Shown piece by piece: positions 52,875-54,954 of a stretch of 64,000 nt of DNA. The DNA is from Spirochaetia bacterium (GTDB lineage Bacteria; Spirochaetota; Spirochaetia; SZUA-6; Bin103): positions 1,760,001 to 1,824,000 of the forward strand of contig CBDBDQ010000005.1 in assembly GCA_965203905.1 (NCBI GenBank), written 5' to 3'. The notes beneath the pieces were generated by a model that searched no databases, was not told the DNA's origin, and worked only from the letters and a program-made list of their open reading frames with translations. The position numbers and the translations under genes are program-made. The first letter of the stretch is position 1. Each line of letters starts with the position of its first letter.

Positions 52875-52878
<4 letters not shown>

Positions 52879-54131
52879 TCGTGTCCATGGACACGTGGTC
52901 CGTACCAGAGACCGCTTCGGTGCCTGGCAGGCTCCGGCGCCGTCGCGAACCCGTTACAGGTGGCAAATCGCACCGTCGGTTACTCGCAACCTTAATGTTC
53001 CCCCTGCTGACGGCCACACTTGGAGCTCAGGAATGGCAACTCCCAACTGATGCTGAGTCTGACAGGGTTGAGTTAGAGATAATGCTCCGCTACCTGCTGC
53101 AGAGTGGCGATCCCGGTGTAGTGCGCCAGTTGTTCGCCGACCACCTTCCTTTGTCACTGGGTGAGCTTGCCGAGATCGATAACCTGTTCACACACCATCT
53201 CAGCGACGACGTATCGGACCGATTGTGTGGCCTATTTAATGATGTATCCGATTCCGCGTTTGGGATGTTGGTGGTACTGCACGAACAAGGGTTACTGCAT
53301 CCGGGCGACGAAGCAGACGAAGCCGGCGATATGCTCACCAACCTACTCGCACTTGCGTTGTTGTGCCGGCAGTCACCGCACCGAGGGGATATCGACAAGA
53401 CTGGACCAACTGCTGCCCCCGGCCTGGGCGCCCAGGCGCGGATAGTTGCATCTGTTGCCGACCCGCACACCGCTTCGGTTAGCGGCACGGTCAGTTTTGC
53501 GGGGTACGTGCCTGAGATGGCTCTGCTTGATATGTCGGCGGATCCGGTGTGCGCAGAGCTAAATCGAAAGGACCCTAAGCGTCGCGAAGTCCTGGTGCTT
53601 GGCGACGCGAGGAGGATCGCCAACGTGCTGGTACAGATCAAGGGTGGCCTGCCCCACACGCTGCTGGAAAGGGTGGATAGCCCACCCGACATGGTCGTGG
53701 AGTTCGACCAGGGCGGCTGCCAGTACAGCCCGCACGTGTTCGCGTTGCGCGTCGGCCAGACCCTGAAGATCCTCAATCCCGACGGCACGCTGCACAACGT
53801 GTACGCCTTCTCCAAGGTCAACGCGGAGTTCAACGAGGCGATGCCCAAGTTCCGCACCGAGCTGGAGAAGGTGTTCGACAAGGCGGAGCCGACGCCGTTC
53901 GCGATAAAGTGCGACGTGCATCCGTGGATGAACGCTTGGGCGGCGGTGTTCGATCACCCGTACTACGCTGTGACCGGGAGTAGCGGCAGGTTCACGATCA
54001 GTAATTTGCCGGCAGGCACCTACGAGTTGGAGATCTGGCACGAGCGGATTCCGGCGCAGACCTATGTGGTTAGCGTGGGAGCAGGTGAAGACGTTCACTT
54101 AAACGCAGTGATGAGGGTTCCGTCAAGCTGA
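52875..54131 (+). CDS. Exported protein: unknown helical N-terminal domain + carboxypeptidase-regulatory-like/cupredoxin module
   Basis: 3' part of ORF 51009-54131 after the sdhA stop (GTGA overlap; ATG 52887 is an alternative start). Signal-like [57 protein letters not shown]. Confidence 0.75.
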
Positions 54132-54159
54132 GCTACAACGTCTTGGAAGGTAGAGAACA

Positions 54160-54954
54160 ATGAGATTGCAACTGACCATCCGGTGGCCACAGCGCCGGCA
54201 CGCTGCTGTTGTCGGGATGCGCCTATGGACCGTTGCGGTCGTAATGCTGTCGTTGGTGACTTTCACACTCGGGGCTCGCGAACGGCAACCCCTGATGGAT
54301 GCCGAGCATGCCTCCATCAGCGGCACGGTCACCTACGCGGGACCCGGTTCCGAGATCACCTTGTTGGACATGTCCACGGACCCCGTGTGCGTCGAACTGA
54401 ACCGGGAGAGTCCGCAGCGCCGCGAGGCCTTGGTGCTCGGCACGGCGCGGGGGCTGGCCAACGTGCTGGTGCAGCTCAAGGGAAGGCTGCCGCGTAACGG
54501 CGATGCGCTACCCGGCACGGCCGTGGAACTCGACCAGAGCGGGTGCCGGTTCGCCCCGCACGTGCTTGCCCTGCGCGTCGGCCAGACCCTGAGAGTGCTC
54601 AATCCCGACGGCACGCTGCACACCGTGCACGCCTACTCCAGGGTCAATCCCAGCTTCAATGATGCGATGCCCAGGTTCCGCACCATGCTCGAGAGGGTGT
54701 TCGACCAGACGGAGCCGACCCCGTTCGTCGTGAAGTGCGAGGTCCACCCGTGGATGAGCGCCTGGGTAGCGGTGTTCGATCACCCGTACTATTTCGTCAC
54801 CGGGCGTGACGGGAGCTTTCGGATCGGCAACCTGCCGGCCGGCACCTACGAGTTGGAGCTCTGGCACGAGCGGCTGCGGGCACAGACGCACACGGTTACG
54901 GTGGCGGCTGGCGAGAGTGTCCGCGTGGACGCCGTGATGCGAGTGGGAAGGTAG
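54160..54954 (+). CDS. Exported carboxypeptidase-regulatory-like/cupredoxin protein (paralog of upstream gene)
   Basis: Signal peptide; [42 protein letters not shown]. Confidence 0.8.
   Translation: MRLQLTIRWPQRRHAAVVGMRLWTVAVVMLSLVTFTLGARERQPLMDAEHASISGTVTYAGPGSEITLLDMSTDPVCVELNRESPQRREALVLGTARGLANVLVQLKGRLPRNGDALPGTAVELDQSGCRFAPHVLALRVGQTLRVLNPDGTLHTVHAYSRVNPSFNDAMPRFRTMLERVFDQTEPTPFVVKCEVHPWMSAWVAVFDHPYYFVTGRDGSFRIGNLPAGTYELELWHERLRAQTHTVTVAAGESVRVDAVMRVGR

Follow-up and report, generated by a model that had tools for sequence, protein, structure and literature searches.

Putative type-1 copper protein genes between sdhA and sdhB of a spirochaete: apparent recent copies of an oxidase-operon gene with a probable role as electron carriers

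Auracyanin of Chloroflexus, sulfocyanin SoxE of Sulfolobus and halocyanin are membrane-tethered blue copper proteins that carry electrons from a quinol-oxidising complex to a terminal oxidase or reaction centre, and a menaquinol:auracyanin oxidoreductase was reportedly described, to go by the title, by Gao and colleagues in 2009. The Bacillus-type b558 succinate:quinone reductase is encoded by three genes in the order sdhCAB. We examined a 64,000-nt stretch of DNA of a Spirochaetia bacterium (contig CBDBDQ010000005.1, positions 1,760,001 to 1,824,000; hereafter the window) that has the same sdhCAB gene order, with all three subunits scoring above curated cut-offs. Unlike in the Bacillus-type operon, however, two unrelated periplasmic-type genes split sdhA from sdhB in the window. 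We named these genes cup1 and cup2, and the third copy in the genome of the window (G000) cup3. By alignments and a structural model, the encoded proteins resemble type-1 copper proteins and have a loop of the amicyanin kind. We consider that cup1 and cup2 are probably functional extra carriers between an octahaem cytochrome c and the terminal oxidase, which arose when cup3 was duplicated into the sdh operon and the copy was then duplicated in tandem, and which are expressed together with succinate dehydrogenase.

A preliminary description of the window had reported two co-oriented paralogs between sdhA and sdhB, separated by gaps of 28 nt (cup1-cup2) and 6 nt (cup2-sdhB). Both points were confirmed: the genes are open reading frames (ORFs) of the + strand with these spacings, their flanking genes score above the NCBIfam cut-offs (Table 1), and Cup1 and Cup2 share 64% identity over 232 residues (E 3e-110). 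The reported overlap with sdhA exists only if cup1 starts at GTG 52875, but not with the likelier ATG 52887, which lies 8 nt past the sdhA stop codon. A long open frame from 51009 was discarded as a high-GC artefact overlapping sdhA. The sdhB gene is the sole sdhB match in the G000 genome at E ≤ 1e-60. No terminator-like site was found on the + strand inside the operon, and a promoter/terminator scan gave nothing above shuffles. Because this sole sdhB has no room for a promoter of its own and the gaps are tight, transcripts reaching it should cross both cup genes; cup1 and cup2 are presumably co-transcribed with the sdh operon.

The predicted proteins share a cupredoxin fold with amicyanin, the type-1 copper protein of methylamine oxidation (PDB 1aac and mutants), together with a candidate ligand His on a strand of HNVH type and the short loop C-x2-H-x2-M. 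The motifs given in the preliminary description, LHNV with CDVHPWM in Cup1 and LHTVH with CEVHPWM in Cup2, are both present. Searches of the PDB with single sequences gave weak cupredoxin matches only (E 0.3-2), and a profile search was needed. With the family profile, wild-type amicyanin was matched at E 1.1e-5, the LHNVH strand and the CxVHPWM loop aligning with its HNVHF and C-x2-H-x2-M. An AlphaFold model of Cup2 built from 36 aligned relatives had a mean pLDDT of 86.2, and a Foldseek search of the PDB with this model returned 74 matches at E ≤ 0.001, of which the best were NirK, amicyanin, pseudoazurin and plastocyanin; the match to amicyanin had E 2e-6, a target TM of 0.68-0.69 and ~19% identity. 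The four candidate ligands were invariant in all 36 aligned relatives. In 135 representatives clustered at 50% identity (the 149 profile-search rows P0142-P0290, less those outside 190-460 residues), and with the numbering of Cup2, His154 was kept in 134, Cys193 and His196 in all and Met199 in 133. Two further cysteines were similarly conserved (Cys77 in 134/135, Cys129 in 135/135), and a Trp-His-Glu motif of the sandwich domain was kept in 120-124/135. Binding of copper by Cup1 and Cup2 may accordingly be expected by homology.

The C-terminal 50-60 residues of both proteins match CarboxypepD_reg (PF13620) above its gathering cut-off of 32.3, with 34.2 bits for Cup1 and 40.1 bits for Cup2. The strand order of the model and this partial match suggest a cupredoxin inserted into a CarboxypepD_reg sandwich. 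The proteins are thus blue-copper candidates by fold and aligned ligands, as the preliminary description had proposed, but they are not amicyanins: TIGR02657 gave 13.9 bits for Cup1 against a cut-off of 110.2, and no hit for Cup2. Unlike amicyanin, the cupredoxin of the Cup proteins is joined to the sandwich and accompanied by the extra conserved cysteine pair, and the gene context is that of oxidase, cytochrome or sdh genes; no methylamine genes occurred among the neighbours examined, although no genome-wide search for mau genes was made.

The three copies differ in their N-terminal parts, which may serve in export of the Cup proteins to the periplasm. Cup2 has a Sec-like signal with a hydrophobic core at residues 23-39, followed by TLGA/RE, while Cup3 has a hydrophobic core at residues 63-79 with a lipobox-like LAAC and a Gly/Asp linker behind it. 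In Cup1, a hydrophobic signal-like stretch (residues 36-51 when numbered from 52875) is followed by a helical extension of ~105 residues, and this by a linker and the cupredoxin with CarboxypepD_reg. The extension found no match in Pfam and no usable match in the protein Atlas, and the lipoprotein signal of Cup3 appears to survive as a relic in its last helix (LLALALLC). An ATG start at 52887 is the likelier one for cup1, because the upstream frame is kept in the congener G003 (with indels of 12 and 24 nt), because the hydrophobic stretch differs from that of G003 by two synonymous changes only, and because the protein shares its M-[DN]-TWS...RRRR head with the cup2-type cluster P0016. An RR or RRRR stretch, which might point to twin-arginine export, recurs in the N-regions of Cup1, Cup2 and P0016, 10-17 residues before the hydrophobic core, and is reduced to a single Arg in Cup1 of G003.

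To which respiratory partners the family belongs is suggested by its members elsewhere. A word-index search gave 374 clusters at 90% identity, and a profile search of 1.84 billion representatives gave 3,559 matches (50%-identity representatives, E ≤ 1e-30), including a few giant CarboxypepD_reg repeat proteins. Source annotations read 'plastocyanin' or 'carboxypeptidase regulatory-like domain-containing protein'. Cup1 and Cup2 show full-length similarity to the family, including the extra cysteine pair, CxVHPWM and WHE. We analysed 159 distant loci, 79 from species genomes and 80 from metagenomes. Of the 129 loci whose upstream flank exceeded 1 kb, 78 had a same-strand homolog of the octahaem cytochrome that ended within 900 nt upstream of cup. 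Likewise, 129 loci had a downstream flank exceeding 1 kb, and coxI started within 600 nt of cup in 37 of these. When both flanks exceeded 1 kb, a cytochrome homolog or cox genes were present somewhere in the locus in 101 of 113 cases. The cytochrome alignments, with the 972-residue cytochrome c of the window as query, spanned 600-970 residues at 24-41% identity. Pfam searches on the neighbours at 19 sampled loci lacking cox genes showed a multihaem cytochrome c of 911-1087 residues upstream in 12, and ctaA and/or ctaB downstream in 12; one of the 19 also had SCO1 (L161).

Gene fusions were found as well. Among 19 longer homologs, three clusters joined a multihaem cytochrome c to a Cup domain; one of these, P0129, matched the window cytochrome at E 1e-37 and Cup2 at E 1e-40. 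Eight clusters (P0126-P0128, P0130, P0132, P0134, P0136, P0137) had a Urate_ox_N (PF06181, PuuD-like) membrane domain with Cup at the C-terminus, at the position where the Urate_ox_N domain of PuuD carries a cytochrome c domain. The other fusions were one to COX1, one to an FGE-sulfatase domain and three to ECF sigma factors. The link to an octahaem Rieske/cytochrome b complex that the preliminary description had raised as a possibility was therefore strengthened, since the family gene follows an octahaem homolog at most of these loci and is fused to such a cytochrome in three clusters. Alternative complex III, which we had first assumed as the partner from papers on Ignavibacteria, was dropped, as the upstream genes encode cytochrome b and the octahaem cytochrome. 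The neighbourhood and the fusions make electron transfer between the octahaem complex and the oxidase the most likely function of the family. Its usual job would be to carry single electrons in the periplasm, taking them from the octahaem cytochrome c of a complex in which Rieske and cytochrome b oxidise quinol, and passing them on to the CuA centre of an A-type haem-copper oxidase.

This proposed mode is that of auracyanin, sulfocyanin and halocyanin, type-1 copper proteins with a lipid or helix anchor whose genes accompany those of respiratory complexes III and IV. The Cup family differs from them in its domains and in its octahaem partner, the likeness being one of proposed role, and auracyanin was absent from the 50 best Foldseek rows of the Cup2 model. 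In other phyla, cup genes beside or fused with an octahaem cytochrome c gene belong to the same family and would hold the same place between a Rieske/cytochrome b/octahaem module and an aa3-type oxidase. What differs here is the presence of two extra copies inside sdhCAB, of which one lost the lipobox and one gained the helical extension.

Within the lineage, the resident copy is linked to the oxidase. A cup homolog was present in all 24 genomes of the taxonomic family and in none of 17 genomes from seven other families of the same order, and a cup copy adjoins coxI in 23 of 23 relatives. In G000, cup3 lies ~440 kb away from the sdh copies and heads a cup3-coxI-coxIII-coxIV-coxII operon (L110; Pfam-confirmed). 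The CoxII protein of this operon has a CuA-type motif and no CXXCH, and therefore an outside electron donor is needed. Three cup matches, and a cup gene adjoining sdh, were found in G000 and G003 only. The arrangement is thus common to the congener, but in the 14 other relatives searched (G001, G002, G004-G015) sdhA and sdhB are adjacent, 0-57 nt apart. The G003 contig C415 and locus L004 agree in length and in their genes and were counted once. A scan of metagenome contigs found no close cup1- or cup2-type genes, the best relative being 47% identical. In the sister genus, G022 has a second cup copy away from coxI (L108, G022:C1:4761184-4764819), an independent duplication within the family. 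Also in the sister genus, locus L113 (G018:C1:4906000-4923000) has a cytochrome b/octahaem operon ~3.7 kb upstream of the cup3-cox operon, with a sulfatase gene and a toxin-antitoxin-like gene between the two, which suggests that the octahaem and cup3-cox clusters were ancestrally contiguous and were later broken up.

To trace the origin of the sdh copies, we built a maximum-likelihood tree from 59 chosen rows (23 cup3 genes of relatives, five from G000/G003, 23 metagenome clusters and eight outgroups), which was midpoint rooted, the outgroups lying on long branches. The cup1 and cup2 genes together (support 100/99) nest inside the cup3 clade of the genus, and cup2 (100/100) nests inside a cup1 grade. 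The tree contains 13 cup2-type rows (11 metagenome clusters, G000 and G003) and five cup1-type rows (three clusters, G000 and G003, with P0023 identical to the G003 row). Cup1 and Cup3 of G000 share 79.7% identity. By this phylogeny, cup1 and cup2 are recent paralogs of the oxidase-operon gene.

A repeat within the operon points to the way in which the copies arose. The window has exactly two copies of the sequence GGAAGGTAGAGAAC[A/G]ATGA (54145-54163 and 54946-54964), with 0 occurrences expected from 100 shuffles. The preliminary description had placed it at the end of both genes before the next start; both copies were found, but the first sits in the spacer, since cup1 ends at 54131. The 19-mer extends to 39 nt at 77% identity and spans the sdhB ribosome-binding site, the start codon and the first eight codons. 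In G003 the gene order is sdhA, cup1, an intact 133-codon copy of the sdhB 5' part (with the 2Fe-2S domain by Pfam), cup2 and full sdhB. In G000 this sdhB fragment is gone except for the ribosome-binding site and seven codons, which now form the head of cup2; the deletion junction lies at a CATC common to both sides, and the cup2 frame is kept. A duplication inside the operon, as had been supposed from the repeat, is thus borne out by the fragment in G003 and its remnant in G000.

These observations are consistent with a three-step history. The resident, lipoprotein-type cup3 would have been copied into the sdhA-sdhB spacer, and a tandem duplication of this cup gene with the first 399 nt of sdhB would then have given the order sdhA-cup1-sdhB'-cup2-sdhB that is still present in G003. 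Finally, most of sdhB' would have been deleted in frame in G000, so that cup2 would use the copied sdhB ribosome-binding site and start codon. As to the sdhB duplicate in G003 itself (L111:1887-2288, G003:C415), its 133-codon ORF corresponds exactly to the N-terminal 2Fe-2S domain (Pfam Fer2_3, E 4e-23), its GC content at third codon positions (GC3) is 0.93, and its ratio of nonsynonymous to synonymous substitution rates (dN/dS) against sdhB is 0.15-0.22. It may therefore encode a small ferredoxin-like product instead of being mere debris.

We compared the substitution rates of the inserted genes and their neighbours between G000 and G003. The dN/dS was 0.18 for the mature part of cup1 and 0.33 for cup2, as compared with 0.15 for sdhA and 0.12 for sdhB, with dS of the two cup genes at 0.35-0.58; this indicates purifying selection on cup1 and cup2. 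Higher ratios were obtained for the helical extension of cup1 (0.41) and its residues 20-69 (0.70). The GC3 values in G000 were 0.79 for mature cup1, 0.63 for its extension and 0.84 for cup2, as compared with 0.92 for cup3, 0.95 for sdhA and 0.96 for sdhB. The two genes are constrained, though not as strongly as cup3, their parent, and the sdh genes beside them.

A number of results count against the view that cup1 and cup2 are functional carriers expressed with succinate dehydrogenase. The sdh-embedded arrangement is limited to 2 of the 24 family genomes, and the lower GC3 of both genes and their faster evolution than the sdh genes fit relaxed constraint. Neither protein matched a Pfam cupredoxin family (Copper-bind, Cupredoxin_1) at E ≤ 0.1. 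The start and the export signal of Cup1 are uncertain, as gene callers start it at Met70, which leaves no signal. The evidence from RNA is ambiguous. We compared contigs from four runs, X2 of DNA type and X18, X19 and X20 from RNA libraries. The RNA contigs covered 53557-54078 and 54427-54960 at 86-95% identity, but these are conserved cupredoxin parts that cup3-type genes of relatives matched as well, and the loose ends of these contigs read like cup3; no RNA contig lay over 52948-53556 or 54079-54339, and none over the cup1 extension or the cup1-cup2 junction. One X19 contig ran from cup2 into sdhB by 14 nt only, which is under our bridging rule, and another joined the sdhA stop directly to the sdhB start and hence came from a relative without the insert. 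Full-text literature searches found no paper describing the Cup family and no experiment on any member. In the parts of the Ignavibacteria papers that describe cox clusters, no cupredoxin is mentioned (PMC3362086, PMC3534657, PMC5492636), and in Melioribacter roseus the gene directly preceding coxI, MROS_0039, is given there as encoding a SCO1/SenC copper chaperone (PMC5492636). Since SCO1/SenC occupies it in that organism, the position upstream of coxI is by itself no proof of a carrier role.

This last point bears on the best surviving alternative, namely that the Cup family consists of copper chaperones or assembly factors for CuA or CuB of the oxidase, or serves copper homeostasis, the sdh copies being spare chaperones. 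SCO1/SenC and PCuAC chaperones share with Cup the coxI-upstream position and, presumably, periplasmic copper binding, the oxidase biogenesis genes ctaA and ctaB often follow cup, at the 12 of 19 sampled loci mentioned above, and the invariant Cys77 and Cys129 with the conserved Trp-His-Glu could form a second metal site. The fold and motif of the chaperones differ, however: Sco proteins have a CxxxC motif plus a His, and PCuAC a His/Met motif, whereas the ligand set and spacing of Cup are those of an electron-transfer type-1 site. No Pfam match to a SCO1/SenC or PCuAC profile was obtained for Cup1 or Cup2, whose predicted fold is a cupredoxin with type-1 ligands and not of the thioredoxin type. 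In L161 a separate SCO1 gene stands in the same cluster as cup, and the fusions are to redox proteins, three clusters to a multihaem cytochrome c and eight to a membrane domain that usually bears a cytochrome c domain. We therefore regard a chaperone function as unlikely.

Alternatively, cup1 and cup2 might be functionless passengers, a recent duplicative insertion that decays slowly within an essential operon. Their restriction to two genomes, the depressed GC3, an evolution faster than that of cup3 as well as of the sdh genes, the rearranged N-terminus of cup1 with its high ratio at residues 20-69, and the sdhB fragment left as debris in G003 would all fit such decay. On the other hand, both frames are intact in two species in spite of the synonymous divergence given above and with dN/dS well in the constrained range, the four ligands and both extra cysteines are kept, all cup2-type and cup1-type tree rows are full length, and the deletion in G000 preserved the reading frame. 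Taken together, these data make slow decay a rather improbable explanation of the two genes.

The third alternative is that the Cup proteins are accessory subunits or dedicated acceptors of the b558-type succinate dehydrogenase, electrons passing from the outer haem through Cup to the aa3 oxidase and so bypassing the menaquinone pool and its uphill step. If true, this would constitute a succinate:cupredoxin respiratory shortcut. It is suggested only by the position of cup1 and cup2 between sdhA and sdhB, where the gene junctions are close or overlap, and by the fact that two species have kept this position. However, sdh genes were found near cup at 0 of the 159 distant loci, the enzyme works without the insert in the 14 other relatives with adjacent sdhA and sdhB, and the copies are apparently young paralogs of an oxidase-operon gene; we hold such a partnership to be very improbable. 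An assembly artefact, which could be imagined for a metagenome-type assembly with 7.9% estimated contamination, can practically be dismissed, as the separately assembled congener G003 (78-96% protein identity) has the same order, X2 contigs bridge the cup1-cup2 and cup2-sdhB junctions (one contig being identical over 52876-53356), and the sdhB-derived junction makes evolutionary sense.

Table 1. Positions in the window of the sdh operon, the inserted genes with their predicted features, and the candidate redox partner module.
Feature	Position	Strand	Basis or remark
sdhC, dihaem cytochrome b558-type membrane subunit	50275-50934	+	TIGR02046, 176.8 bits (cut-off 96); Pfam Sdh_cyt
sdhA, flavoprotein subunit	50950-52878	+	NF005749, 1148 bits (cut-off 866)
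cup1	52887-54131 (ATG start) or 52875-54131 (GTG start)	+	
Cup1-specific helical N-terminal extension	53052-53372 (residues ~60-166)	+	AlphaFold helices 60-166, pLDDT 65-78; GC3 0.63
Cup1 predicted type-1 ligands	His307 53793-53795; Cys346 53910-53912; His349 53919-53921; Met352 53928-53930	+	invariant alignment columns; amicyanin motif alignment
39-nt repeat, copy 1	54145-54183	+	sdhB-type ribosome-binding site, ATG and first codons; now head of cup2; apparent remnant of a partial sdhB duplicate
cup2	54160-54954	+	
Cup2 predicted type-1 ligands	His154 54619-54621; Cys193 54736-54738; His196 54745-54747; Met199 54754-54756	+	alignment conservation
39-nt repeat, copy 2	54946-54984	+	true sdhB ribosome-binding site and start; cup2 stop TAG inside
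sdhB, iron-sulfur subunit	54961-55704	+	NF005746, 420 bits (cut-off 243)
Rieske/cytochrome b/octahaem module	31278-37111	-	Pfam; 16 kb from the cup genes; putative redox partner
Rieske	36218-37111	-	
cytochrome b, N part	35313-36179	-	
cytochrome b, C part	34197-35303	-	
membrane-anchored octahaem cytochrome c	31278-34196	-	8 CXXCH, N-terminal anchor; closes the operon

The window carries a Rieske/cytochrome b/octahaem module of its own, and cup1 and cup2 adjoin neither its octahaem gene, at 16 kb, nor the cox operon, at ~440 kb. The place behind the octahaem gene, where cup sits in other phyla, is occupied by three genes (28269-31276, - strand), two of which match the BREX ATPases BrxC/BrxD, and these three genes may be an inserted defence island. 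A copper-handling set lies at 19455-22791; it consists of a P-type ATPase with YHS and heavy-metal-binding domains (19455-21923), a CsoR-type metal-sensing repressor (21926-22297) and a divergent monohaem cytochrome c (22312-22791). Just upstream of sdhC, the stretch 49000-50100 has a GC content of 50-54%, as compared with ~68% for the window, and may be foreign DNA; a minus-strand ORF of 234 codons in it (49043-49747) had no match in Pfam. Two divergent citrate synthase genes stand back to back at 46271-48801, the one at 46271-47593 (- strand) being fused to an N-terminal MerR/HTH_17 DNA-binding domain. An ORF of 1808 codons (13745-19171, - strand) combines alpha-amylase, starch-synthase (Glyco_transf_5) and glycosyltransferase-1 domains in an unusually large fused protein of glycogen metabolism.

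Returning to the reading that we prefer, in which cup1 and cup2 are extra octahaem-to-oxidase carriers, the insertion into the sdh operon most likely changes their regulation and not their chemistry. The cell would make extra carrier whenever succinate dehydrogenase, an enzyme of the citric acid cycle, is made, with Cup2 as an untethered form of the carrier and Cup1 as a form with a helical extension. The copying of a periplasmic carrier gene into the middle of the operon of an essential cytoplasmic enzyme was a narrow event, confined to the window genome and its congener, and the window shows operon evolution under way, an intermediate state surviving in the sister species. The Cup family itself is large, spans many phyla and has an almost invariant type-1 copper site; if it is the mobile carrier between the octahaem complex and the oxidase, a common bacterial respiratory chain would run on a blue-copper protein and not on a soluble cytochrome c.

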